NCBI GenBank assembly: GCA_019135865.1
Contig: JAGVVD010000022.1
Location: 108,204 to 172,203, forward strand
From: Elusimicrobiota bacterium
Lineage (GTDB): Bacteria; Elusimicrobiota; Elusimicrobia; Elusimicrobiales; UBA9959
Length of the DNA: 64,000 nucleotides
Direction of reading: 5' to 3'
Shown: positions 2,004 to 59,088 of the stretch, one piece after another
Layout: every line of letters begins with the position of its first letter
Position numbering within the stretch: the stretch's first letter is position 1
Notes under the pieces: model-generated
Told to the model about the DNA's origin: nothing
What the model saw: the letters and a program-made list of their open reading frames with translations, nothing else
Databases searched by the model: none
Translations under genes and position numbers: made by a program

Positions 2004-2919
2004 GGACGGCAGGGCCGACCTGTGCGACTCGGCGGTCCGGCTGGGCCTCTACGCCAATATTTTCCTGGCGCTGCTCAAGACCGTCGCCGGCATACTCGGC
2101 CACAGCTCCGGCCTGCTCGCCGACGGCATCAATTCCACCTCCGACGTCGTCTACTACGTCGCGGTCATGGTCTTCATGCGCCTGGCCCGCAAGCCGCCGG
2201 ACGAGGAGCACCCCTACGGCCACAGCCAGTTCGAGACCATAGGCGCGCTGGTGGTGGGCGCCTTCGTCCTCACCACGGGCGTCGCGATCTTCTGGGACTC
2301 CATCAACAAGGGCTACGACCTCTACGCCCACGGCGCCGCCGCGGCCGAGGTGCGCGCCTTCACGCTCTGGGCCGCCGCGGCCACGGTGGCGCTCAAGGTC
2401 TGGCTGGCGGCCCGCACCCGCGCCATAGGCCGGGAGACCGGGAACCCGGCCGTCAGCGCGCTGGCCGCCGACCACGCCAACGATATCATGGCCGCCGCGG
2501 CGGCTGGCACGGGCATCGTCTTCGCCCGGGCGGGTCACGCCTGGGTGGACCCGCTGGCCGGCGCGGTGGTGGCGGTCTTCATACTGCGCACCGGCTTCGG
2601 CATACTCAAGGACTCGTCGATGGAGCTGATGGACGCGGTCCCGGGCGGCAGGCTGGACGCCGCAATACGCGCCGTACTGGGGGAGGTCAAAGGGGTCACC
2701 GCGGTGGAGGAAATAGCCTCGCACCGCTTCGGCCCCTACTACATGGTCAACGCCACCGTCTGCGTGGACGGGGGGATAAGCGTCAGCGAGGGGGACGCCA
2801 TAGCCACCGCGGCGGAGAGGGCCGTCCTCAAGAGAATGGACTTCGTGAAGAAGATATACATACACTATCATCCCGCGGGCCGGCCCTGCGGGCCGCGCCG
2901 CGGCCGGCGGCGGGTCTGA
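1984..2919 (+). CDS. cation diffusion facilitator (CDF) family metal efflux transporter
   Basis: 311 aa. The CDF hallmark motifs are present: LYANIFLALLKTVAG...SSGLLADGINSTSDV and HPYGHSQFETIGALVVG. A C-terminal cytoplasmic domain follows. Confidence 0.85.
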   Translation: MTEKKAEDGRADLCDSAVRLGLYANIFLALLKTVAGILGHSSGLLADGINSTSDVVYYVAVMVFMRLARKPPDEEHPYGHSQFETIGALVVGAFVLTTGVAIFWDSINKGYDLYAHGAAAAEVRAFTLWAAAATVALKVWLAARTRAIGRETGNPAVSALAADHANDIMAAAAAGTGIVFARAGHAWVDPLAGAVVAVFILRTGFGILKDSSMELMDAVPGGRLDAAIRAVLGEVKGVTAVEEIASHRFGPYYMVNATVCVDGGISVSEGDAIATAAERAVLKRMDFVKKIYIHYHPAGRPCGPRRGRRRV

Positions 2920-2923
2920 GGGA

Positions 2924-3940
2924 ATGAACGCCGGCGATCTCGGGCGCCTGCTCTCCCGGGCGCTGGAAAACCGCGCCCCGCTGCTGGAGAAGCTGCGCGC
3001 CGAGGGAACGGACTGTTACCGCCTCTTCCACGGCATAGCCGAAGGCCTGACGGGCCTGACGGTGGACCGCTACGGCCCCCTGCTGCTGGCGCAGACCTTC
3101 CGCGACCCCCTCTCCCCGTCGGATACGGCCGCGCTGGAAGAGGCCCTGCGCGCCCTCCTGCCCGGCGGCCTCCATTTCGCCTATAATCACCGCGGCAAGA
3201 GGGCGTCCGAACCGTTCGACGAATGGCATAGGCCCGCCCCGGCCGCCCTGGCCGAGTTCACCTGCTCCGAAGGCGGGATAAAATACCTGGTACGGGCCAG
3301 GCACCGCGGCATAGACCCCTGGCTGTTCCTGGACCTGCGCCCCGGCAGGCGCCTCCTGCGCGCCGCCGCGGAAGGCCGCGCCGTCCTCAATCTCTTCGCC
3401 TATACCTGCGGCGCCGGAGTCTGCGCGGCGGCCGGCGGAGCGTCGGAAGTCTGGAACGTGGATTTCGCCGGCTCCAGCCTGGAAGTCGGCCGCCGCAACG
3501 CCGTGCTCAACGGCATACCCGATGAAAAGTTCAGGACCGTGCAGGAGGATTGCCTCACGGTGGTCCGGCAGCTGGCGGGCCTGGACGTAAAGGGCAGGTT
3601 AGGCAAAAAGCGCCGCTACGAGAGGGTGGAACCCCGGCGCTTCGGCCTGGTCTTCCTGGACCCGCCCGCCTGGGCCAAGGGGCCGCTGGCCGCCGTGGAT
3701 ATAGTGAGGGATTACCCCGCCCTTTTCAAGCCGGCCCTGCTGGCCCTGGAGCCCGGCGGACGCGTTATAGCGACCAACCACGCTCCAGGCGTTTCCTGGG
3801 AGGACTGGGAGGCGGCCCTGCGCCGCTGCGCGGACAAGGCCGGTCGCCCGCTGAAGACGGTCCAAAGGGCCGACCCCGACGGGGATTTCCCTTCTTTCGA
3901 CGGGAACCCTCCGCTCAAGATCGCCGTCTGCGGCCTGTAA
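2924..3940 (+). CDS. class I SAM-dependent methyltransferase, RlmI/RlmK-like
   Basis: 338 aa. The SAM-binding motif LNLFAYTCGAGVCAA is followed by NVDFAGSSLEVGRRN and VFLDPPAW (the DPP motif of RNA m5C/m2G methyltransferases). Confidence 0.7.
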   Translation: MNAGDLGRLLSRALENRAPLLEKLRAEGTDCYRLFHGIAEGLTGLTVDRYGPLLLAQTFRDPLSPSDTAALEEALRALLPGGLHFAYNHRGKRASEPFDEWHRPAPAALAEFTCSEGGIKYLVRARHRGIDPWLFLDLRPGRRLLRAAAEGRAVLNLFAYTCGAGVCAAAGGASEVWNVDFAGSSLEVGRRNAVLNGIPDEKFRTVQEDCLTVVRQLAGLDVKGRLGKKRRYERVEPRRFGLVFLDPPAWAKGPLAAVDIVRDYPALFKPALLALEPGGRVIATNHAPGVSWEDWEAALRRCADKAGRPLKTVQRADPDGDFPSFDGNPPLKIAVCGL

Positions 3941-3951
3941 AGCCGGTCCTT

Positions 3952-4854
3952 CTACAGCGCCAGTTCGTAAAGATAAAGCAAAGGGAAGAAAAGCAGCGTG
4001 GAGAGGACTATGGCCTGGGCCGTCAGGTCCGCGTCGAAATCGAATTCCCGCGCCACCACATAGTTGAGCACCGCCGCCGGCATGGCCATCTGCAGGAAGA
4101 CGGCCGAGGAAACCTCTCCCGAAAAGCCCAGCAGCCGCGCCGCGGCCAGGTAAACGGCCGGCAGCAGGAGCAGTTTGACCCCGCTTATGGCCGCGAGGCG
4201 GTGGAAGTTCCCCGCCACTTTCTTTCCGTACAGGCTTATCCCTATCGTGAAGAGCGAGAGCGGCATGGTGGTCCGGCCGATATCCGTCATCACGGTCTCC
4301 GCCAGGGCGGGGAGCCTCCAGCCGGAAGCCGCCAGCCCCAGGCCCGCCAGCGAGGACCAGAGCACTATATTGCGCGCCGCCGTGCGCAGGAGCCGGGAAG
4401 GAGGACAGCCTCCTTCTCCGCATATCGTCGTCATGAGCGCGAAACCGGCGGTGAAAACGACCACATTGTGCAGCGAGGAGATGATGGCGGCGTGGCCTAT
4501 CAGGTGGTCCCCCAGGCGCAGCGAGACGACGGGGAAACCGAGATAGACCGTGTTCCCCATGACCGAGACTATGAGCAGCAGCCGGGCGAAGCGCCAGTCC
4601 AGCCCGAAGAGGCGCCAGGCCGCCCATACCCCGCCCATGCAGGCCAGCAGCGGCAGGAGATTGGCCAGCAGGAAGTCCCAGCCCAGCCCGGAGAGCGGCG
4701 TGGAGGCTATCTTGACGATTATAAGGCAGGGCAGGGCCAGGTAATAGAGGTACTGGTTGAAAGCCTTCTCCGCTCCCTCCCCGACGACGCCGAAGCGCCG
4801 GAAAGCCCAGCCGGCGCCGATTATCAGCAACAGGTTGACTATTATAACGGTCAT
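3952..4854 (-). CDS. AEC (auxin efflux carrier) family transporter
   Basis: 300 aa polytopic membrane protein. The N-terminus IIGAGWAFRRFG...FNQYLYYLALPCLI is typical of the AEC family. Confidence 0.8.
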   Translation of the reverse strand: MTVIIVNLLLIIGAGWAFRRFGVVGEGAEKAFNQYLYYLALPCLIIVKIASTPLSGLGWDFLLANLLPLLACMGGVWAAWRLFGLDWRFARLLLIVSVMGNTVYLGFPVVSLRLGDHLIGHAAIISSLHNVVVFTAGFALMTTICGEGGCPPSRLLRTAARNIVLWSSLAGLGLAASGWRLPALAETVMTDIGRTTMPLSLFTIGISLYGKKVAGNFHRLAAISGVKLLLLPAVYLAAARLLGFSGEVSSAVFLQMAMPAAVLNYVVAREFDFDADLTAQAIVLSTLLFFPLLYLYELAL

Positions 4855-4855
4855 A

Positions 4856-6511
4856 TCAGCCCATGAAATAGAGCACCAGGACCTGGGACGAGATCACGCG
4901 CAGGATCATCACCAGCGGATAGACCGTCGCGTAGGCCATGGCCGAGCGGTTGGAGGGCGCCATAGAATTGGCGAAGGCCAGCGCGGGGGGGTCGGTCATG
5001 GAACCGGCCAGCGCGCCGCAGAGCGAGAGGTAGTTGACCCCCAGCCTCGCCTTGGCGAAGACGCCGACAGCGATGATAGGCAGCACCGTTATGAGGAAGG
5101 CGAAGAGCACGATATAGAGGCCCCCGCCGTGCAGCAGCGTCTCGAAGAAACTGCCGCCGGCCTTGAGGCCCACGCAGGCCAGGAACAGGACTATGCCCAG
5201 CTCGCGCAGCATCAGGTTCCCCGCCGGGGGCAGGTACCAGTTCAGCGGGCCTATGTGCTGCACGTAGCTCAGGATTATCGCCATGATCAGCGGTCCGCCG
5301 GCCAGGCCCAGCTTGACCGGCGCGCTGAGCCCGGGTATCGCTATCGGGATGGAACCCAGGAAGACGCCGGCGGCTATGCCGATGAAGGCGGGGATGAGCT
5401 GCGGATGGTTAAGGTCCTTGACCGAATTGCCCAGGAAGGCCGCGGCTTTGTCGACGGAGCCCTCTTCGCCGACCAGCACCAGGTTGTCGGCGAACTGCAG
5501 GACATAGGAATCCGAGACCAGGAACTCCACGTCCGCGCGCGCCACGCGCGTGGCGGCCACGTCGTACTGCGCCTCCAGGCCCGCCTCCTCCAGGGTCCTG
5601 CCGATGACCTCCTTGCGCGTCACTATCGCGCGCGAGTGGACGATGCGGCTGGGCATCTTCTTGAGATCCAGTTCGCTCTTCGAGCCGACCACCAGCATGA
5701 ACTTGCGGACCGCTTCCTCCCGGCCCACCGCGAGGAGCGTGTCGCCGGCGCGGATCACGGTGTCGTCGTGGGCGACGGACAGCGCGCCGTCATGGCAGAC
5801 GCGCGAGACCACCACGCCTATCTCGTCGATGGCGGGGATGTCCTTTATCTTCAGCCCGTCCAGGTTGCGGTTCTCGACGCGGATACTGAGATTGGCGATC
5901 TCGGAACCGGCCTTATGCTCGTCGGGAGCGCTCATGTCGGCCCCGGCCTGCCGGCGGAAGAGGGCCCGCAGCAGGAGCATGGTCAGTATTATGCCCACTA
6001 TCGCGCCGGGATAGGCCAGCGCGTAGCCCACCGGGACGCTGTTGACGGCTTCCGGCCTTATGGCCTCCAGGGTCTGCTGCGCGGCGGCCAGCGAGGGGGT
6101 ATTGGTGACGGCGCCGGAATACATGCCGACGGCCGTCGGTATGTCGTAGCCGCAAAGCTTCGCGACCGCTATCGTGACGGCGACGCCGCCCAGCACCACG
6201 GCCGCGGCCAGCAGGTTGAGCCTTATGCCTTCCTTCCGGAAAGCCGAGAAGAAGCCGGGGCCGACCTGCGTGCCGATGGAATAGACGAAAAGTATGAGAC
6301 CGAAATCGCGCAGGAACTCGAGCGTGTCGTGGTCGGCCTCGAAACCGAAATGGCCGAAGAGTATGCCGGAGAAGAGGACGCCGGCTATGCCGAGATTGAT
6401 GCCGAAAACCTTTATATTGCCTATGGCCAGACCGGCCGCGGCCACCAGCATCATGACGAAAACGGTATGCGCCGCGGAATGGGGGGAGAAGAGATAGGCG
6501 AGCAGGTCCAT
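4856..6511 (-). CDS. YidE/YbjL-type (AAE family) transporter with central TrkA-C/RCK_C domains
   Basis: Two membrane halves flank two soluble repeats (IRVENRNLDGLKIKDI... and AIVTRKEVIGRTLEE...). The start is placed at MDLLAYLF, where a GGAGA lies 9 nt upstream. The longer ORF-track start would cover a TATAAT box. Confidence 0.8.
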   Translation of the reverse strand: MDLLAYLFSPHSAAHTVFVMMLVAAAGLAIGNIKVFGINLGIAGVLFSGILFGHFGFEADHDTLEFLRDFGLILFVYSIGTQVGPGFFSAFRKEGIRLNLLAAAVVLGGVAVTIAVAKLCGYDIPTAVGMYSGAVTNTPSLAAAQQTLEAIRPEAVNSVPVGYALAYPGAIVGIILTMLLLRALFRRQAGADMSAPDEHKAGSEIANLSIRVENRNLDGLKIKDIPAIDEIGVVVSRVCHDGALSVAHDDTVIRAGDTLLAVGREEAVRKFMLVVGSKSELDLKKMPSRIVHSRAIVTRKEVIGRTLEEAGLEAQYDVAATRVARADVEFLVSDSYVLQFADNLVLVGEEGSVDKAAAFLGNSVKDLNHPQLIPAFIGIAAGVFLGSIPIAIPGLSAPVKLGLAGGPLIMAIILSYVQHIGPLNWYLPPAGNLMLRELGIVLFLACVGLKAGGSFFETLLHGGGLYIVLFAFLITVLPIIAVGVFAKARLGVNYLSLCGALAGSMTDPPALAFANSMAPSNRSAMAYATVYPLVMILRVISSQVLVLYFMG

Positions 6512-29674: not shown

Positions 29675-29735
29675 TCCCGGCTCCGGCCGCCGTCCCCGGC
29701 CTCCCCCCGGGATTCCTGGGCCGACGCATCCAATC

Positions 29736-29932
29736 GGTTCCCCGAAGGCTCCCGCGCTCGTCACGGTTCGGGTTTTCCGGGCCCACCCTTCGCTCGTTCG
29801 GCCTCGCAAGAACTCGGCCGTCGCGCATAGCGCTAGGCCTCAAACATTCTTGCTCGTCCGCAGAGCGGTACCCTCTCTCGCTCGGGGGAAAACCCTCCTC
29901 ATGTGACTCGCTGCGGGAGCCTCCGGGGAACC
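29736..29932 (-). repeat. intergenic structured repeat, module 1, copy A
   Basis: The reverse complement aligns end to end with 36561-36759. The termini 29736-29755 and 29913-29932 are complementary at 19 of 20 positions. Confidence 0.8.
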
Positions 29933-29954
29933 GACCTGTTAAACGTCCCATCTA

Positions 29955-30105
29955 AGGAGACAGCCGGGGGAGGCGTACCCTCACCGGAGCAAAACCCTTC
30001 GGAGCCGCGAGCTTGCATAAGCGCGAGCGGCGAGAACGGGAAGGGCGCGCACGGTGTGCGCGACCCTGTTTTTGCGAGGTGAGGGCACGCCATGCCCCCG
30101 GCATA
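29955..30105 (+). repeat. intergenic structured repeat, module 2, copy A
   Basis: It shares aggagacagccgggggaggcg and catgcccccggcat with 53621-53770 (reverse complement). It shares aaacccttcggagccgcgagctt and ggcgagaacggga..ggcgcgcacggtgtgcgcgacc with 52299-52512 (reverse complement). Confidence 0.8.
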
Positions 30106-30186
30106 GTTCTTCGTATTGCCTGCGGATGGGACGGGGGGGGCGGATTGACTTGCGGGCCGATAGTTAATATCTTATACGCTCTTATC

Positions 30187-36065: not shown

Positions 36066-36531
36066 AAACGCGCTCGAAGCCCTCAAGGCCAGGCTCGGCG
36101 GCAAGGTCGTCGAAACCTCCTCCTTCCGCGGCGACGATACCGCCGTAGTAACGCCCGAAGCCTGGCTGGAGGCCGCCTCCGCGCTGAAGAACGGACTCGG
36201 CTTCGATTTCCTCATGGACCTCTGCGGCGCCGACTACCTGCCGCGCGAGCCCCGCTTCGAGGTCGTCTGCCATTTCTACAGTTCGAAGACCGGCGCCCGC
36301 CTGCGCCTCAAGACCCGCCTGCCCGGAGGCAAACCGGCCGTGGATTCGCTGGCCGGCCTCTGGCTCTCCGCCGACTGGTTCGAGCGCGAGGCCTGGGACA
36401 TGTACGGCATAGATTTCAAGGGCCATCCCGACCTGCGCCGCCTGCTGATGTACGATTCCTTCGAGGGCCATCCCCTGCGCAAGGATTACCCGCTCAAAGG
36501 CCGCCAGCCGAGGATAGACCATGCGGATTAA
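36055..36531 (+). CDS. nuoC: NADH-quinone oxidoreductase subunit C
   Basis: 158 aa. The conserved NuoC block ADWFEREAWDMYGIDFKGHPDLRRLL is present. Confidence 0.95.
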   Translation: MTAENALEALKARLGGKVVETSSFRGDDTAVVTPEAWLEAASALKNGLGFDFLMDLCGADYLPREPRFEVVCHFYSSKTGARLRLKTRLPGGKPAVDSLAGLWLSADWFEREAWDMYGIDFKGHPDLRRLLMYDSFEGHPLRKDYPLKGRQPRIDHAD

Positions 36532-36560
36532 GGGAACAACGGGGATGCCGAGAAAGGCGG

Positions 36561-36759
36561 GGTTGACGGACGGACTTGCGGCGAGTCACATGCGGAGGTT
36601 TTTCCTCGAGCGAACGAGGGGACCGGCACTGCCGGACGGGCATGATTGTTCGAGGCCCGAGGCGCTATGCGCCCGGGCCGAGTTCGTGCCCGGCCGAGTG
36701 AGCGAAGAGCGGGCCCGGAAAAACCGGACCATGACGAGCGCGAGGCCGTCCGGCAAACC
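36561..36759 (+). repeat. intergenic structured repeat, module 1, copy B (between nuoC and nuoD)
   Basis: It aligns with the reverse complement of 29736-29932. Shared blocks are gcgagtcacatg.ggagg, cgagcga, gcgctatgcgc, ggccgagttc, gagcgaag, gggcccggaaaa and gacgagcgcg. Its own termini are complementary. Confidence 0.8.
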
Positions 36760-36812
36760 GACGCACTTCGTGGTGAGCCGGCGGCAGCACCACAAAGTTC
36801 TCCACTAATAAC

Positions 36813-51689: not shown

Positions 51690-52298
51690 TCATAAAAAGC
51701 CGTTCTTCCCGAGCGCCTCGCGCAGGGCGGAGTCGCCCGCGGCGCCGGCGCGCGCGTATTTGCCCAGGATGTCGTATTCGATGTTGACGGCGGAGCCGGG
51801 CCTGAGGGCGCCGAGCGCGGTATTGGCCCAGGTGTGGGGGATAATGGCGGTCCTGAAGGAGCGCGGGGTGACGGCGAAGACGGTCAGGCTGACGCCGTCG
51901 AGCGCGACGGAGCCCTTCTCGACCATGACCGCGCCGGCGCCGGTCTCCAGTACGAGGGTGAAGCTGTTGGCTTCTTTATGGACGGCGAGCAGTTTCACCG
52001 TCCCGTCTATGTGGCCGGTGACGAAATGGCCGCCGAGGCGGGCGCCGATCTTGAGCGCGCGTTCCAGGTTGAGCGGCGCGCCGGGGCCCAGCAGGCCCAG
52101 CGCGGTACGCGAGCGGGTCTCGGGGCTGAGGTCGAAGAGGGCCGCGCGGCCCTTTGCCGAGATATAAGTGAGGCAGGCGCCGTTGACGGCCACGCTCTCG
52201 CCGGTCTCCAGCTTCCAGCCGGCCGGCACTTCCACGGCCAGTCTCCCGCCGCCATATGACTTCAGCTTTCCCACCGCTTCGATTATTCCCGTGAACAT
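51690..52298 (-). CDS. ribE: riboflavin synthase alpha chain
   Basis: 202 aa starting MFTGIIE. The duplicated lumazine-binding halves are present (GESVAVNGACLT and GSVALDGVSLTV). Confidence 0.9.
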   Translation of the reverse strand: MFTGIIEAVGKLKSYGGGRLAVEVPAGWKLETGESVAVNGACLTYISAKGRAALFDLSPETRSRTALGLLGPGAPLNLERALKIGARLGGHFVTGHIDGTVKLLAVHKEANSFTLVLETGAGAVMVEKGSVALDGVSLTVFAVTPRSFRTAIIPHTWANTALGALRPGSAVNIEYDILGKYARAGAAGDSALREALGKNGFL

Positions 52299-52512
52299 AA
52301 GTGAAAATTATCGGGGGTCCTGTCGGCGGTTCGCTGCGAAAAAACGCGGTCGCGCACACCGTGCGCGCCGCTCCCGTTCTCGCCGCGAGCGCTCGCCCTG
52401 CGCCTCCGTTCCGCGAGAAGCGACGCGGTGTAGTACTTCGGCGCGGGCTCCGTAAGCTCGCGGCTCCGAAGGGTTTTTCTCCGCGAATCCGCCGCCACCC
52501 CCCATTGCCTCC
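52299..52512 (-). repeat. intergenic structured repeat, module 2, copy C (between ribD and ribE)
   Basis: The reverse complement shares the core of 29955-30105 and carries a roughly 45-nt internal insertion. It fills the whole 214-bp ribD-ribE gap. Confidence 0.8.
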
Positions 52513-53604
52513 TCATTTAAAAATAACCTCCAGCATCAGGTCGGGGCCGAGGCGCCGAATATCCTTCACTTCGGCCTGCACGCCCAGCGTCTTGCGGGCG
52601 GCGTTGAGCCTGTCGGGCCAGACGACGGAACTTTTAGAGTCCGTGCCGCCGATGACCATGGGCGCGATGATGCAGCAATAGCGGTCCACCAGGCCCTGGC
52701 TGATGAAGGAACCGGCGACTTTTCCGCCGCCCTCCACTAGTATGTGGCTTATCCCTATGGAGCCCAGCGCCTTGAGCAGCGCCGGCAGCGAAGGCCGCCC
52801 GTCGCGGTCCTTGGGAAGTTCCAGCACTTCGGCGTGGGCGGGGAGGCGCTTTACGGCGGCGGCCGGGGCCTTGCCGACGACGGCGACGATGACGCGGTCG
52901 TTCTTGAAGACCCGCGCTTTGGGCGGTATGCGCAGCCGGGAATCGAGTATGACCACCCAGGGCTGGCGCGGGACTTTGAAACCGCGGACATTAAGCAACG
53001 GGTCGTCCGCCAGCACCGTACCGACGCCGGCGATCACGGCGTCGGCTTCGGCGCGCAGCTTATGGGCGAAGCGGCGCGACTGCGGCGACGAGATCCAGCG
53101 CGAACGGCCGGCCGCGTCGGCTATCCTGCCGTCCAGGCTCTGGGCCGTCTTGAGCGTGACATAAGGCAGGCGGGTGCGCATATACTTGGCGAAGGCCGGA
53201 TTGAGCGCCTCGCATTCGCGGCGCAGCAGCCCCGTCTTAACCTGTATGCCCGCGGCGCGGAGTATCTCGCCGCCGCGGCAGCTGTGGCAGGGATTGGGGT
53301 CGGACGCGCCGATGAAGACGCGCGCTGCGCCGGCCGCCTTTATCGCTTCGGTGCAGGGCGGGGTCTTGCCGTGGGTGGAACAGGGCTCCAGCGTGACATA
53401 GAGGTCGGCGCCGCGGGCGCGGCCCCCGGCCTTCCTCAGCGCGGCCGCCTCGGCGTGCGGGCCGCCGAAGCAGGCGTGCCAGGCCTCGGCGATGATCCGG
53501 CCCTTTTTGGCCAGTACCGCGCCGACGATGGGATTGGGGTGGGCGCCGCAGCTGCCGCGCCGCGCCAGCGCTATCGCCCGCCGCATCAGTTCTTTATCGG
53601 TCAT
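52513..53604 (-). CDS. ribD: bifunctional riboflavin biosynthesis deaminase/reductase
   Basis: 363 aa from MTDKELMRRAI. The deaminase Zn motifs are HAEAAAL and PCSTHGKTPPC. A C-terminal reductase domain follows. Confidence 0.9.
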   Translation of the reverse strand: MTDKELMRRAIALARRGSCGAHPNPIVGAVLAKKGRIIAEAWHACFGGPHAEAAALRKAGGRARGADLYVTLEPCSTHGKTPPCTEAIKAAGAARVFIGASDPNPCHSCRGGEILRAAGIQVKTGLLRRECEALNPAFAKYMRTRLPYVTLKTAQSLDGRIADAAGRSRWISSPQSRRFAHKLRAEADAVIAGVGTVLADDPLLNVRGFKVPRQPWVVILDSRLRIPPKARVFKNDRVIVAVVGKAPAAAVKRLPAHAEVLELPKDRDGRPSLPALLKALGSIGISHILVEGGGKVAGSFISQGLVDRYCCIIAPMVIGGTDSKSSVVWPDRLNAARKTLGVQAEVKDIRRLGPDLMLEVIFK

Positions 53605-53620
53605 AGCAACAAGGAATATC

Positions 53621-53770
53621 CATGCCGGGGGCATGTCGGGGCGGCAGCGCGCGAAACACGGGCTCTCGCGCATAGCGCTCGGCCCTCCTCACTCGGCCTC
53701 CGCGCTTGCGATGCTCCGGCCTCCGTGAAGGTTTCGCTAAGCTGCCGCCCCGCCTCCCCCGGTTGTCTCC
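53621..53770 (-). repeat. intergenic structured repeat, module 2, copy E (between ribH and ribD)
   Basis: The reverse complement starts aggagacaaccgggggaggcg directly after the ribH TGA and ends catgcccccggcat, as in copy A. An internal perfect 10-bp stem pairs 53638-53647 with 53742-53751. Confidence 0.75.
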
Positions 53771-54229
53771 TCACAAATGCCGGAACAGGTCGGCCATTTC
53801 GATGGCGGCCATGGCGGCCTCGGCGCCCTTGTTGCCCTGCTTGGTGCCGCAGCGCTCGATGGCCTGCTCCAGGTTGTCCGCGGCGACGACGCCGAAAATG
53901 ACCGGTTTCTTATGGCGCATGGAGACTTCGGCCACGCCCTTGGCCGTCTCGGCCGCGACCAGGTCGAAGTGCGGGGTGTCTCCGCGGATGATGACGCCCA
54001 GGCAGATGACGGCGTCATAATTGCCGGCGGCGGCCTTGTCGGCGGCCAGCGCCAGTTCGTAGGCGCCCGGCACTTTTACCAGGGTTATGTCCTTCTCGTC
54101 GGCGCCGTGCCTCTTCAGCGTGTCGACGGCCCCGTCGGCCAGCTTGCCGGTCAGGAAGTCGTTGAACCGGGACACGGCCAGAGCGAACTTGAGTTTATCC
54201 GCTTTGAGTTTTCCTTCTATTATCTTCAT
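53771..54229 (-). CDS. ribH: 6,7-dimethyl-8-ribityllumazine synthase
   Basis: 152 aa. Conserved blocks are FALAVSRFN, VPGAYELA and VICLGVIIRGDTPHFD. Confidence 0.95.
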   Translation of the reverse strand: MKIIEGKLKADKLKFALAVSRFNDFLTGKLADGAVDTLKRHGADEKDITLVKVPGAYELALAADKAAAGNYDAVICLGVIIRGDTPHFDLVAAETAKGVAEVSMRHKKPVIFGVVAADNLEQAIERCGTKQGNKGAEAAMAAIEMADLFRHL

Positions 54230-54237
54230 TCGTCCTC

Positions 54238-55428
54238 CTAAATGAACATATGCCCGAGCTTGCGGGCCTTCGTCGCCAGATATTTCCTGTTGTGCGCGTT
54301 GGACTTCATCACCAGCGGAACGCGCTCCGCTATTTTAAGGCCGTAGCCGCCCAGACCGGCCAGCTTGCGCGGGTTGTTCGTCAGCAGCCGCAGGCGGCGG
54401 ACGCCGAGGTCGGAGAGTATCTGCGCGCCGGTGCCGTAGTCGCGCAGGTCGGCGGGAAAGCCCAGCGCCAGGTTGGCCTCGACGGTGTCGTAGCCCTTGT
54501 CCTGGAGCGCGTAGGCTTTTATCTTGTTGCCCAGTCCTATGCCCCGGCCCTCCTGGCGCATATAGAGCAGGATGCCCGAACCCTCCTTCGCTATGGCGGC
54601 CAGGGCGGCGTCGAGCTGCTCGCCGCAATCGCAGCGCCGCGAACCGAAGACATCGCCGGTCAGGCACTCGGAGTGCACCCGCACCAGCGCCGCGGGGCCG
54701 GGCTCGCCCTTCACCAGCGCGATATGCTCCAGGCCGGTGAGCTTTTCGCGGTAAACGTGCATCGTAAAAACGCCGTGGGAGGTGGGGAGCGCGGCCGTGG
54801 CGTGCTTCTCGACCAGGGTCTCGCGGCCGCGCCGGTACTTTATGAGGTCGGCGATGGTGGCCAGCTTGAGGCGGTGGCGGCGGGCGAAGGCCCTGAGCTG
54901 CGGCATGCGGGCCATGCTGCCGTCGGAGCGCATGATCTCGCAGATGACGCCGGCGGGGCGCAGGCCGGCGAGGTTAAGGAGATCGACGCAGGCCTCGGTA
55001 TGGCCGGCGCGGACCAGCACGCCGCCGGGCTTGGCGCGCAGCGGAAAAATATGTCCGGGACGGGTGAAATCGGCGGGGACGGAAGAGGGGGAAGCGAGGG
55101 CCTTCAAGGTGCGTGACCTGTCGGCGGCCGAGATCCCGGTCGTGACCCCCTTTTTGGCGTCGACGGAGATGGTCCAGGCCGTCTTGTACGGGTCGGAGTT
55201 GTCGCGCTCCATCGGGAAAAGGTCCAGGCGGCAGGCCAGGTCCGCCGAGAGCGGGCAACAGAGCAGGCCGCGCGCTTCCCTGACGATGAAATTGACCTTC
55301 TCCGGCGCGGCGAACTGCGCCGCCATGACTATATCGCCCTCGTTCTCGCGGCTCTCGTCGTCGGCCAGGACGACCATGCGGCCGTTCCTCACGTCCTTTA
55401 TTATCTCCGCTATCGGGGCGAAATCCAT
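54238..55428 (-). CDS. ribBA: bifunctional DHBP synthase / GTP cyclohydrolase II
   Basis: 396 aa. The DHBP synthase motif is [10 protein letters not shown]. The GTP cyclohydrolase II motif is [22 protein letters not shown] lies upstream. Confidence 0.95.
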
Positions 55429-55470: not shown

Positions 55471-55511
55471 GGAAAAGCCGCACAAAAACCGCGCGCGGCC
55501 TTTACATCGGT

Positions 55512-55643
55512 CCTTCTCTCATCCGGACTTTACCGTCGGCCCCGGGATCTCACCGGGTCCTGCCTCGGGCTGCCGCCCTCGGCTCGCGGGCTCGCCGCTT
55601 TCGCGGACCACCGCCGGTGGGGAATCTCGCCCCGCCCTGAAGA
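55512..55643 (-). promoter_or_regulatory. FMN riboswitch (RFN element) aptamer
   Basis: The minus strand contains the conserved RFN blocks AGGGCGGGGCGAGATTCCCCACCGGCGGT, CCCGCGAGC, GGACCCGGTGAGATCCCGGGGCCGACGGTAAAGTCCGGATGAGAGAAGG. It lies in the 5' leader of ribBA. Confidence 0.9.
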
Positions 55644-55652
55644 ACCGCTTTA

Positions 55653-55826: not shown

Positions 55827-57653
55827 GTGAGCGCCGCGGAACCCCGGTCCGGGCCCGAGATCGGTTTCCTCTGGGACGCCATGTCCAGCGCCCAGGAGGA
55901 AGCCGAACGGCTTTCCGGCGACTACTCGAAGATCGTCAAGCGGACCGAGGAGCTCGATTCCCGCCTGGCCCATCTGGACCGCCTGCTGCTGGAAGCCGCC
56001 GCTCGTGAAACGGCGCTGAAGGCCGAGATCGAGGCCCTGCACGCCGCCGCCGCGGACAAGGACGAACTCGTCAAGAAGGCCGCGGGCCTGCTGCAGGCCC
56101 ACGCGGCCATGGCGGAGCGGGCGGAAAAACTCGCGGCCCTTCTCGATTCGGAAAAGGAGCGCGTGGCGCTCATGGAAGCGGAGCGCGCCGGCCTGGAAAA
56201 TTTCGCGAAAGGGGAGGAGGCCCGGGCGGCGGCGCTGGAGGAACGTTTCCGGGCCATAGCGGCCATCGAACCGCTGGCGAAAGTGCTGGACGCCGCCGCG
56301 CGGGGAGCGGAGAGCCGCGTTTCACCCGAGGAGATACTGACCAGGCTGACCTCGGCCGACGCGGAGACCGCGAAGCTTTCCGCCGCCCTGGAGGCGCGTT
56401 CCAAAGAGGCCTCCGAACTGGCGGAGAAAATAGCCGCCCTCGCGGCGGGAAAAGAAGCGGTGGAAAAGCAGCTGAAACTGACCGCGGAACGGGCGGCGGA
56501 ACTGGAAAGCGAACTGACCGCCCTCAAAGCTTCCGCCGGACGCGCGCAACTGGCGACGCGGGAAGCCGCGGACGCAGCGGACCGGGTGGACCGCGCCGCC
56601 CACGACAAACTCCTCGACAGGCTGGCCGCGGCCGAAACCGAGACCGGCAGGCTGTCCGCCCAGCTGGAGGCGCGCCTGACGGAAGCCTCCTCGCTGGCCG
56701 CCGAAATAACCGGTCTCAAGGCGGGCAAAGAGGCGCTGGAAAAAGAACTTTCGCTTGCCCGGGAACGGGCGCAGGTACTGGAGCGCGAACTGACCGCTCT
56801 TAAAGCCTCCGCAGCTGGCCCGGCCCGGGAGACGCCGGAGGCCGTGTACGACGCGGGAGGGGTGGACCGCGCTTCGCACGATAAGCTCCTCGCCAGGCTG
56901 ACCGCGGCCGAAGCCGAGACCCGCAGACTCTCCGCCGACCTGGAAACCAACATTAGAGAGGCCTCTTCCCTGGCCGGCGAGATCGTCGGACTGAAGGCGG
57001 CCAAAGAGGCGCTGGAAAAGCAGCTGACCCTGGCGGCGGAACAGACGGCGGCGCTGCAGCGCGAACTGGCCGTCGCCAAAGCCGGCGGCGGCGCGGAACA
57101 GGGACCGGGAAAAGCGCCGGCCGGTCTGGACGACGCTGAGAAGAAGCTGGCGGCGGTGCAGGCCGAACTGCTGGAGTTGCGCGGACGGGAAGAGGAACTG
57201 AGGAAAAAGGACTTCGGGCGCGAAGCCGAGCTGACCGCCCTGCGGAACCAGCTCGCGGAGGCGCAGGTCCAGATAGAACAGGAGAAGCACGACTTCGAGG
57301 AAGCCGCCAATACCGTTTTCGACCTGCAGGGCGAGACCGCCTCGCTGAGTTCCAGCCTGGAAGAAGCGCTGGCGCGGGAGAAGGCCCTCGCCGCCAGGCT
57401 CGGCGAAGGCGGCGCCCCGGCGGACACACGGGGACAGGCCGCGCTCGCCGAAAAGCTCGGCGGGGAACTGAACAGGATCTCGGAGAAACTCTCTCTTTTC
57501 AGCGGACGTCTGGCGGACCCGGAGCGCGCGGAACTGGCCGCCCTGCTCAAGGAGCTGGCCGCCGCGGCCGCGCTGCTCAAGACCTGGCGGGCCGGCGGCG
57601 GCGGGTCCGGGGCCGGAGAACCGCCGCCGACCCCGCCGACGGAACCCCGTTGA
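55827..57653 (+). CDS. Ala/Glu/Leu-rich coiled-coil protein with three about 92-aa tandem repeats
   Basis: 608 aa with a GTG start preceded by GGGGAGG. Heptad-like A/E/L composition runs throughout, with strong GC3 bias. The C-terminus is Gly/Pro-rich. Confidence 0.7.
   Translation: MSAAEPRSGPEIGFLWDAMSSAQEEAERLSGDYSKIVKRTEELDSRLAHLDRLLLEAAARETALKAEIEALHAAAADKDELVKKAAGLLQAHAAMAERAEKLAALLDSEKERVALMEAERAGLENFAKGEEARAAALEERFRAIAAIEPLAKVLDAAARGAESRVSPEEILTRLTSADAETAKLSAALEARSKEASELAEKIAALAAGKEAVEKQLKLTAERAAELESELTALKASAGRAQLATREAADAADRVDRAAHDKLLDRLAAAETETGRLSAQLEARLTEASSLAAEITGLKAGKEALEKELSLARERAQVLERELTALKASAAGPARETPEAVYDAGGVDRASHDKLLARLTAAEAETRRLSADLETNIREASSLAGEIVGLKAAKEALEKQLTLAAEQTAALQRELAVAKAGGGAEQGPGKAPAGLDDAEKKLAAVQAELLELRGREEELRKKDFGREAELTALRNQLAEAQVQIEQEKHDFEEAANTVFDLQGETASLSSSLEEALAREKALAARLGEGGAPADTRGQAALAEKLGGELNRISEKLSLFSGRLADPERAELAALLKELAAAAALLKTWRAGGGGSGAGEPPPTPPTEPR
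56313..57090 (+). repeat. intragenic tandem triplication, 276-nt period
   Basis: Units starting near 56313, 56589 and 56865 encode (H)DKLL.RL.AAE.ET.RLSA.LE....EASSLA.EI.GLKA.KEALEK.L.LA.E....L.RELTALKAS. DNA identity is about 75% by eye. Confidence 0.7.
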
Positions 57654-57717: not shown

Positions 57718-59088
57718 ATGACCGAACTGGATTCCGTAAGCCCGGTCGACGGACGCTACGCGGCGGTCGCCCGGCCATTCTCCCGTTATTTCAGCGAAGC
57801 GGCCCTCATACGCCACCGTCTCGAGGTCGAGGCGCTTTACCTGGAACTGCTCTGCGGCCTGCCCGGGACCGGCATACCGCGGCTGCCCGCGAAGGGGAAA
57901 GAACTGCTCGCCGGGCTGAAGAACGCCTCTCCCGCCGACGCGGCGCGCGTCAAGACGATAGAGAAAAAGACCCGCCACGACGTAAAGGCCTGCGAACGCT
58001 TCATCCGCGAGCGCCTGGAGCGCGCCGGCCTGGCCAAATACAGGGAATACGTCCATTTCGCGCTCACCTCGGAAGACGTCAACAGTTTTTCATACGCGCT
58101 GATGCTGGCGCGGGGACTGGAGCGCGTCCTCCTTCCCGCGCTCGACGGGATAATAGCCGAATTGCGCCGGCTTGCCCGCCGCCACGCGGCCGACCCGCTG
58201 CTGGCGCGCACGCACGGCCAGCCGGCCGTCGGCACCACTTTCGGCAAGGAGTTCGCCGTCTTCGCTTCGCGCCTCGAGCGCCAGCGCGCTCAACTGCTCG
58301 GCCTGCGCCTCCAGGCGAAGCTGTCCGGTGCGGTCGGGAATTACAACGCGCACCTCGCCGCCTTCCCGCGCGCCGACTGGCCGGCCTTCGCCCGCCGCTT
58401 CGCCGCCGCCGCGTCCAAAGGGCTGAAGATAAGGATAGAGGCCGCGCCGCTTACCACCCAGATAGAACCGCACGACGCCGTAGCGGAACTTTTCGACGCG
58501 CTGCGCAGGACCAACACCATACTCATCGGGCTCTGCCAGGATATCTGGCGTTATATCAGCGACGGGCTGATAGTTCAGCGGGCGGTGACGGGGGAAGTCG
58601 GCTCGTCCACGATGCCGCAGAAGGTGAACCCCATACATTTCGAGAACGCCGAGGGCAATCTTGGCGCGGCCAACGCGCTCTGCGGTTTCTTCGCGGCCAA
58701 GCTGCCGGTCTCGCGCCTGCAGCGCGACCTGTCCGATTCCACCGTCGAACGGAATTACGGGACCGCCTTCGCCCATTCGCTCATCGCCTATAAGTCGATG
58801 ATGGAAGGCTTCTCGCGCATAAGCGTCGACCGCGCCGCCGCCGCCCTTTCTCTTTCGGAGCATCCGGAAGTCTACGCCGAGGCGATACAGACCGTCCTGC
58901 GGCGCGAGGGGGTAAAAGACCCTTATTCGCTGCTCAAGGAACTTACCCGCGGCCGCGCCGTAACCCTGCCGGACCTGCGGGACTTCGTAGAAGGCCTGCC
59001 CGTGCGCCCGGCGGTCAAAACCGAGCTGAAAGTTCTGCTGTCCAAACCCTACACCGGCCTCGCCGCGCGCCTGGCCCGGGGAAAATGA
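57718..59088 (+). CDS. purB: adenylosuccinate lyase
   Basis: 456 aa. The N-terminal block is SPVDGRYA. The fumarate-lyase signature GSSTMPQKVNP is present. Confidence 0.95.
   Translation: MTELDSVSPVDGRYAAVARPFSRYFSEAALIRHRLEVEALYLELLCGLPGTGIPRLPAKGKELLAGLKNASPADAARVKTIEKKTRHDVKACERFIRERLERAGLAKYREYVHFALTSEDVNSFSYALMLARGLERVLLPALDGIIAELRRLARRHAADPLLARTHGQPAVGTTFGKEFAVFASRLERQRAQLLGLRLQAKLSGAVGNYNAHLAAFPRADWPAFARRFAAAASKGLKIRIEAAPLTTQIEPHDAVAELFDALRRTNTILIGLCQDIWRYISDGLIVQRAVTGEVGSSTMPQKVNPIHFENAEGNLGAANALCGFFAAKLPVSRLQRDLSDSTVERNYGTAFAHSLIAYKSMMEGFSRISVDRAAAALSLSEHPEVYAEAIQTVLRREGVKDPYSLLKELTRGRAVTLPDLRDFVEGLPVRPAVKTELKVLLSKPYTGLAARLARGK

Follow-up and report, generated by a model that had tools for sequence, protein, structure and literature searches.

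The riboflavin (rib) operon of an Elusimicrobiota bacterium carries, in its two long gene junctions, copies of a palindromic repeat that we call module-2. Both lie in the window, the whole 64,000-nt stretch of DNA analysed here, within which all coordinates are numbered (Table 1). On the minus strand the operon runs from a flavin mononucleotide (FMN) riboswitch through ribBA, ribH and ribD to ribE, an order on which Rfam and Pfam agree with the original prediction. The first gap, between ribBA and ribH, is 8 nt long (GAGGACGA) and does contain the AGGAGG noted earlier, which overlaps the TAG stop. The ribH-ribD and ribD-ribE gaps measure 166 and 214 nt, and each consists, as had been proposed, of one sense-oriented module-2 copy (A and C, respectively), as seen from nhmmer matches and a shared fold. 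The TGA stop of ribH (53773-53771) doubles as the first triplet of copy A and that of ribD (52515-52513) as the first triplet of copy C, and copy C runs at its 3′ end straight into the ribE ATG (..UUUUCACUU/AUG).

The ribD start is the ATG at 53604, which is backed by six close homologues (87-92% identity, 363 amino acids); more distant RibD homologues have 355-366 amino acids. A longer ribD open reading frame from 53673, with its start within the element, finds no support.

Copy B, the third in the window, lies downstream of a module-1 copy (a second repeat, described below) and upstream of the yceD-rpmF-plsX promoter. Its TAA is not the stop codon of any gene, and a promoter-like TTGACT-17-TATCTT is found beyond it, at 30145-30173. 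Copies A, B and C align at 68% mean column identity, share the same fold architecture and begin, as originally claimed, with a common 5′ terminus that includes a stop triplet (TGAGGAGACAA, TGAGGAGGCAA and TAAGGAGACAG). The motif TRAGGAGRCA occurs at exactly three sites in the window, namely these copies, compared with 0.35 expected from shuffles. The kinship of the three copies exceeds chance.

Neither ribD nor ribE has a GGAG within the 20 nt upstream of its ATG, in line with the earlier statement that both lack a Shine-Dalgarno sequence. A Shine-Dalgarno-like motif precedes 18-22 of the 49 window genes (~37-45%) and 12% of internal start-like codons. Starts lacking one are therefore common in the window, and those of ribD and ribE are not exceptional. 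More than half of the window genes lack such a motif, and they have AT-rich, at times -10-like upstream sequence (for example at 57718, 50202, 36813 and 25537); judging from these sequences, short-leader or Shine-Dalgarno-independent initiation may be common in the organism.

Conserved ends and fold of the module-2 family

Further copies were collected with an inner 21-mer chosen without the disputed terminus, with a second inner 21-mer for metagenomes, and then with an nhmmer profile. The first 21-mer matched 13 loci in six Elusimicrobia/Elusimicrobiaceae metagenome-assembled genomes (MAGs), with 1-4 exact-match loci per MAG, and the second matched further metagenome contigs. The profile resolved ~24 distinct copies of full length, along with fragments and derivatives shortened by deletion (loci outside the window carry L numbers). 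Copy density in the window is three per 64 kb. Identity with a known RNA family was ruled out, as the window matches in Rfam 15 are the FMN riboswitch and tRNAs only, and the element stretches stay at E >= 1.1 even when the gathering thresholds are replaced by permissive ones. A full-text literature search returned no description of such repeats in Elusimicrobia. The family is previously undescribed, and the kind of bacterial repeat that it represents is well known.

Module-2 subtypes, named after their P2 stems, share no conserved ATG and no consistent frame. An element-encoded small protein was considered, as TAAGGAGACAATG opens a frame in C-type copies, and was rejected: A-type and B-type copies lack this ATG, which lies in CAATGGGGG, and a shift by one G puts copy C in a different frame. 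GC richness accounts for the open frames. Module-2 is thus dispersed, non-coding, structurally conserved and polymorphic between species.

Alignment of the 24 distinct copies upholds TRAGGAG as the true element terminus, with a conserved purine-rich 5′ end of consensus A-T-[A/C/G]-[A/G/T]-G-G-R-R-A-C-A, in which T3, G6 and A12 never vary and conservation of G7, A10 and C11 is 90% or more. The 3′ consensus is (G/C)ATAGTTRTTCC(T)(T)(A/G). The two ends form a terminal inverted repeat, 5′ AAGGAGACAAT with 3′ ATAGTTATTCCTT, which is imperfect, with a 2-nt indel, is paired in both the minimum free energy (MFE) and the alifold structures and can be written as 5′ (TA)AGGRRACA ... 3′ RTTYYCC(N)(TA). 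In the MFE folds, 5′ GAGGA pairs with 3′ UUCCU, and GGAG with UUCC/CUCC at the 3′ end. The terminus is kept in nested copies and in antisense copies (L043b, L053a, L001/L002 and L010). The GGAG therefore belongs to the element, and a relic host Shine-Dalgarno sequence is ruled out; it forms one half of the terminal inverted repeat.

The claim that the terminus includes a stop codon stands in part. The 5′ triplet is a stop in 16 of the 24 copies (TAA in 11, TGA in 4 and TAG in 1), but TCG, TCA or TCT in the other 8, most of which are nested within an outer CCCCCGC...GCGGGGG inverted repeat, and only the rib copies of module-2 use the stop-like triplet as the actual stop of a gene. Nesting within this outer repeat is seen for many C-type copies (L001, L002, L004, L006, L008, L010, L013 and L024), which suggests either a third module or a composite element of greater length.

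The predicted fold is a long hairpin. An outer helix, in which 5′ GAGGAG pairs with a 3′ UUCCUU-like sequence, is followed by P1 (GGGGG/CCCCC), P2 (12-14 bp), P3 (an A-run paired with a U-run) and a three-way junction cap formed by P4, either short or extended by ~55 nt, and the GC hairpin P5. The sequence of P2 is wholly different between copies, but its complementarity is kept. In the family alignment 98.0% of 860 cells are paired, compared with 85.5% for shuffles and 38-52% for slid partners. Both sides have changed in 21 of 36 pairs, and none of 500 shuffles reaches the observed values. Covariation this strong shows the hairpin to be under constraint, which would act on RNA or on single-stranded DNA. 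Copy A and its orthologue in L016 are 78% identical; of their 54 pairs, 41 are unchanged, 7 are compensated, 2 are changed on one side and still paired, and 4 are broken.

Module-1 is a second palindromic repeat, of ~210-280 nt. Its copy between nuoC and nuoD, genes identified by Pfam Complex1_30kDa and Complex1_49kDa, was aligned with five other module-1 copies. It starts at the nuoC TAA stop, TAA/GGGAACAAC (TAAGGGAACAAC), and its 3′ end, ..AAAGUUCUCCACUAAUAAC (AAAGTTCTCCACTAATAAC), lies just 5′ of the nuoD ATG. At several loci a module-1 interior stands between module-2-like termini. The two modules thus share ends and exchange interiors as one mosaic repeat system. More module-1 loci are L017:3738-4000, L019:3790-4000, L060:1270-1500 and L043:1130-1390.

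Table 1. Repeats, genes and RNA features of the window (fold z-scores are against dinucleotide shuffles)
Feature	Coordinates	Strand	Position or form	Evidence
Module-2 copy A	53607..53774	-	ribH-ribD junction; short form, 'A-type' P2 stem	nhmmer 53774-53611, E = 7e-19; fold -95.6 kcal/mol, z = -4.8
Module-2 copy C	52299..52516	-	ribD-ribE junction; long form with P4 extension, 'C-type' P2 stem	nhmmer E = 5e-56; fold -116.8 kcal/mol, z = -5.7
Module-2 copy B	29952..30119	+	short form, 'B-type' P2 stem	nhmmer E = 3e-36; fold -100.3 kcal/mol, z = -6.1
Module-1-type element	36529..36812	+	fills the 281-nt nuoC-nuoD junction	motif scan; fold z = -5.0
Second module-1 copy	29720..29935	+	reversed relative to the 36.5-kb copy; adjoins copy B	inverted repeats I1 and I12; alignment
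P5 hairpin of copy C	52339..52371	-	GCGG-CGCGCAC-GGU-GUGCGCG-A-CCGC, then G, then U6	MFE structure
FMN riboswitch aptamer	55507..55648	-	operon head	Rfam RF00050, 98.9 bits
Riboswitch terminator hairpin	55469-55446			terminator-like hairpin plus T-run
ribBA	54238..55428	-		Pfam PF00926 + PF00925 (DHBP_synthase + GTP_cyclohydro2)
ribH	53771..54229	-		Pfam PF00885 (DMRL_synthase)
ribD	52513..53604	-		Pfam PF00383 + PF01872 (deaminase + RibD_C)
ribE	51690..52298	-		Pfam PF00677 (Lum_binding)

Beside the riboswitch, a 608-amino-acid open reading frame (55827-57653) contains three tandem 276-nt repeats of 64-74% identity (56303-57091, plus strand) and probably encodes a repetitive coiled-coil-type protein.

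Gene junctions and a probable origin of the start at stop codons

The original prediction proposed a comparison with relatives that lack the element, and both rib junctions proved amenable to it. The RibH protein of the window has no exact match in the assembly collection, but RibD homologues of 88-92% identity led to five related operons. In all four that have ribH before ribD, an element occupies this junction, with GGRGA directly after the ribH stop. Its subtype varies: A-type in the window and in L016, C-type in L014, C-type with an internal deletion to 117 nt in L005, and a module-1 interior between module-2 termini in L017. Two outgroups, L054 and L055 (65-66% RibD identity), have no element between ribH and ribD, and there the ribH TAA is followed after 8-25 nt by the ribD ATG. 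As the RibH C-terminus (..LF[KR]xL*) falls at one and the same residue in the relatives and in these element-free outgroups, the element sits at the ancestral stop and has not truncated RibH. At ribD-ribE, six relatives (L014, L016, L019, L005, L054 and L055) have a TAATG or TGATG overlap, and copy C occurs in the window alone; it thus entered a translationally coupled junction recently, as a lineage-specific insertion. Copy A is an old insertion at ribH-ribD, its structure kept via compensatory changes.

Other palindromes are found at the same places. The ribD-ribE junction of L017 holds a different one, of 78 nt (5093-5170), and in the third outgroup, L056, both rib junctions contain unrelated palindromes (2876-3000 and 4069-4300). 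These palindromes of other lineages are unrelated or distantly related, and two have similar starts, TAATACGGGAAAC and, in L017, TAGGGGGACACAAT. The rib junctions thus appear to be recurrent landing sites.

With respect to co-directional gene pairs, the element is sense at seven loci and antisense at five; several copies lie between convergent genes, and some are nested in other repeats. In tight junctions, where 0-13 nt separate the stop from the 5′ end and 0-7 nt separate the 3′ end from the ATG, every copy is sense. This set comprises ribH-ribD (five species), ribD-ribE, nrdD-nrdG and an NTP-transferase/methyltransferase pair, with nuoC-nuoD as a module-1 relative. The nrdD-nrdG junction holds a full element in L037, a 68-nt outer-stem remnant in L057 and an empty TGATG overlap in L058. 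The transferase pair holds module-2 in L011 and a module-1 chimera at the same site in L060; no empty site was found for the L011 junction, its orthologue being this chimera-filled junction of L060. In antisense copies L043b, L012 and L053a, the 3′ terminus adjoins the stop codon of the gene that is read into the element. One of the two readings first offered, insertion at stop/Shine-Dalgarno junctions, is therefore only partly right: the element does recur directly after stops in tight junctions, but it also occurs in convergent, antisense and nested settings, and the GGAG is its own.

The collected loci also record rearrangements. The deletion derivatives L005:4542-4659 (117 nt) and L057:1138-1200 (~68 nt) retain outer stems and termini only, exactly between stop and start. 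L008:2152-2367 and L013:5862-6078, from two species, share a neighbour gene (MNKDEILYWLDP...) and have the element in opposite orientations, consistent with inversion between flanking inverted repeats. L004:458-675 and L009:7585-7803 are orthologous, with a shared convergent downstream gene (..YSHFPK*), and carry C-type and B-type P2 stems, respectively, which implies gene conversion or re-insertion. Runs of N with a duplicated element fragment are seen at L012:1093-1371 and L007:1065-1269, apparently because the repeats cause breaks or collapses in MAG assemblies.

At least nine elements have TA at both extremities (L037, L057, L017, L011, L007b, L003, L030, copy B and the nuoC-nuoD element), which suggests an element of the form 5′ TA/AGGAG...CTCC(N)/TA 3′. 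Excising the element and one TA gives GAT-TAA-TAAC-ATG at nuoC-nuoD and TTA-TAG-CTT-ATG at ribH-ribD of L017, and we infer that such short native junctions are plausible. The start at a stop codon would then be most simply explained by a TA-A terminus that lands on or next to native stops, together with purifying selection. Both ends would carry TA, either as a target duplication or as a TA-ending terminus. With A as the first inner base, the 5′ end would read TAA, later mutated to TGA in some copies. An element landing on the TA of a native TAA or TAG in a tight junction would rebuild the stop in place and leave the downstream ATG a few bases past its 3′ end, and selection would remove insertions outside short operon junctions. 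Scarcity of TA in coding DNA was rejected as the cause of junction targeting; the difference is slight (2.4% vs 3.0%), so that purifying selection is the better explanation.

We therefore consider it likely that module-2 is a non-autonomous, palindromic mobile repeat of a clade of Elusimicrobiaceae, resembling miniature transposable elements with inverted repeats (MITEs) such as ERIC and Correia, with a TA-A end that lands on stops and with co-transcription by the host operon. At 160-220 nt its copies are within the MITE limit (< ~300-500 bp); they are non-coding, have terminal inverted repeats, are dispersed and show presence/absence polymorphism at ribD-ribE and nrdD-nrdG.

Several points weigh against this assignment. 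The eight copies with TCG, TCA or TCT have no stop triplet at their 5′ end. The 3′ junction of copy C with ribE (CACTTATG) reads TTATG, one A short of the expected TTAATG, and base-level comparisons of filled and empty sites are not clean on TA duplication. Sister species carry different subtypes at one and the same junction, which requires gene conversion or repeated site-specific insertion, and the long retention of copy A with compensatory changes hints at selection beyond tolerance. Sense RNA exceeds antisense RNA in stability by 5-25 kcal/mol in all 24 copies. The same asymmetry in copies antisense to host genes makes it an element-intrinsic property, and it was accordingly rejected as a sign of host-mRNA selection. 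No transposase was seen beside any copy in ~470 kb of fetched loci, in which no systematic search for one was made. Finally, the sample of copies is biased by its recovery through two exact 21-mers, and the gene contexts, which come from our own codon-usage open reading frame caller, are approximate.

Among known repeats, REPs are short hairpins (20-40 nt) that carry a conserved 5′ GTAG, are paired as REPINs and are mobilised by RAYT transposases, and the REP/BIME repeats in malE-malF and hisJ-hisQ are structured and intercistronic, stabilise the upstream mRNA and lower distal expression. Correia elements target TA. Module-2 resembles REP/BIME in being a structured intergenic repeat within operons but differs in its terminal inverted repeats and in lacking a GTAG-headed short unit; it is instead a three-way-junction hairpin of 160-220 nt with TAAGGRRACA ends. 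For MITEs there are precedents for TA targeting, co-transcription, RNase processing and terminator-like repeats (PMC2229807, PMC10969869).

ERIC/IRU elements are imperfect palindromes of ~130 nt that fold end to end, occur in Enterobacteriaceae and Vibrionaceae in transcribed intergenic regions, including operons, in either orientation and with internal-indel size variants, and can alter mRNA fate when inserted at the 3′ ends of genes (PMC10969869). Module-2 is similar in its end-to-end hairpin, intra-operon sites, both orientations and size variants, whereas it is longer, has a three-way junction, a terminator-like core and ends that read as a stop codon and a Shine-Dalgarno-like sequence, and belongs to another phylum, so that kinship in sequence is not expected. 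The Correia elements of Neisseria (CREE/NEMIS) are co-transcribed MITEs of ~100-155 nt with terminal inverted repeats, at which RNase III cuts their hairpin RNA (PMC2229807, PMC10969869). Module-2 is likewise a small, MITE-like element with terminal inverted repeats and presumably co-transcribed, although the promoter elements and IHF site of Correia ends are not seen in it and RNase III cleavage of module-2 is conjecture.

In Streptococcus pneumoniae, TA is the insertion site of RUP, whose inverted repeats are IS630-like; BOX is built of modules, SPRITE resembles a rho-independent terminator, and the three cluster and insert into each other (PMC2229807, PMC10969869). Module-1, module-2 and the outer inverted repeat form similar mosaic clusters, but with other sequences and in another host phylum, and no parent insertion sequence was identified for module-2. 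Chunjie of Geobacter uraniireducens is a MITE that, like module-2, lies inside an operon (PMC2229807, PMC10969869).

Possible effects on operon expression

Both rib copies are expected to be co-transcribed with the operon. In the predicted folds, the stop codon and the 5′ GGAG pair with sequence just upstream of the next AUG. In the RNA, the Shine-Dalgarno-like GGAG would be paired with UUCC/CUCC near that AUG and so would not act as a conventional Shine-Dalgarno sequence; ribD and ribE would most likely initiate without one, on the AU-rich 3′ tail. If translation terminates at the stop within the outer helix, the ribosome might melt this helix, expose the tail and the AUG, and thereby aid initiation. 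Such coupling by unmasking is the mechanism that we tentatively prefer, and any effect on expression would probably be a mild damping of the distal genes.

The elements could instead be exapted regulators, acting as partial terminators, 3′-exonuclease barriers or RNase III/E sites, so that expression would be lower for ribD-ribE than for ribBA-ribH. The terminator-like signal first described for copy C, a 7-bp hairpin (CGCGCAC-GGT-GTGCGCG) followed 6 nt later by T6, is indeed present; its stem extends to 11 bp with one G before U6, and the U-run doubles as the 3′ strand in P3, where it pairs with GAAAAA. A terminator scan flags the site, but shuffles contain sites of this kind just as often, which speaks against the regulatory role. 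The core is intact in copies C and B (11-bp stem, G and U5-6), and on the antisense strand P4′ is followed by U5, so that judged by sequence it is a plausible bidirectional terminator. A role in regulation would also fit the near-perfect stem of ~30 bp, a plausible RNase III substrate, the retention of the ribH-ribD copy with compensatory changes in every close relative, the position of several copies just after stops or between convergent genes, and the precedents of Correia, ERIC and SPRITE. However, in copy A, which is old and conserved, the U-run is degenerate (GUGUUUCG), and the derivatives L005 and L057 remain in place without P4 and P5. Orientation to host genes is mixed, with one locus inverted between species, and since the relatives all lack copy C, the operon works without it. 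On balance we think exaptation of this kind unlikely.

Two further readings give the stop/start geometry itself a function. Module-2 might be a portable 'junction cassette' whose ends rebuild the stop and bring stop, GGAG and AUG close to one another where a hairpin of 55-80 bp has its base, so that ribosomes re-initiate beyond the insert as in a bacterial analogue of a ribosome shunt. If true, this would explain the repeated colonisation of stop/start overlaps in essential operons (rib, nrd and nuo), the compensatory retention and the decay to outer stems, but we regard it as improbable. Hairpin-bridged coupling, in the form of a split ribosome-binding site or a prokaryotic 'shunt', would have the fold juxtapose stop, GGAG and next AUG so that ribosomes re-initiate across a 160-215-nt insert. 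Its appeal lies in the uniform sense orientation and close spacing of the tight-junction copies (both rib junctions, nrdD-nrdG, L011 and nuoC-nuoD), in empty ancestral sites that are stop/start overlaps and hence translationally coupled, in deletion derivatives (L005 and L057) that keep exactly the outer stems, and in AUGs with no Shine-Dalgarno sequence beside them. Yet insertion into 0-25-nt junctions trivially produces this geometry, the GGAG is paired with UUCC rather than free in every fold, and genes lacking a Shine-Dalgarno sequence are common in the genome. The hairpins of T4 genes 38/25 are ~20 nt, and we know of no bacterial precedent for bridged inserts of such length, which also counts against bridging; we regard it as improbable too.

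Least credible of all is an internal start: GATATT and GATAAT do lie, as first pointed out, 10 nt before the ribD and 8 nt before the ribE ATG, and several window genes have AT-rich, -10-like sequence just before their ATG, so that the hexamers could be -10 boxes giving short-leader or leaderless ribD and ribE transcripts, but they are variants of the (G/C)ATAGTTRTTCC terminus of the family, present also in copies with no downstream gene, and have a GC-rich stem 16-18 nt upstream, no -35 box and no TG extension. Scanning for -35 and -10 hexamers at 16-18-nt spacing detected no sigma-70 promoter in copy A or C, contrary to the original suggestion. The scan found good promoters elsewhere, TTGACC-17-TATATT after ribE and TTGACT-17-TATCTT after copy B, and the sigma-70 consensus therefore applies in this organism.

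Taken with the insertion account preferred here, these results document a new, structurally well-supported mosaic repeat family in the uncultured phylum Elusimicrobia and offer a simple sequence-level account of elements that seem to begin at stop codons. Tight, coupled operon junctions (rib, nrd and nuo) would be recurrent landing sites at which insertions survive selection. For annotation, 'gaps' of 160-280 nt and the spurious open reading frames within them should be masked as repeats. A regulatory role of module-2 is possible, as far as its sequence tells. Should coupling or attenuation be confirmed, the family would offer a natural means to study the tolerance of operons for large, structured intercistronic inserts.

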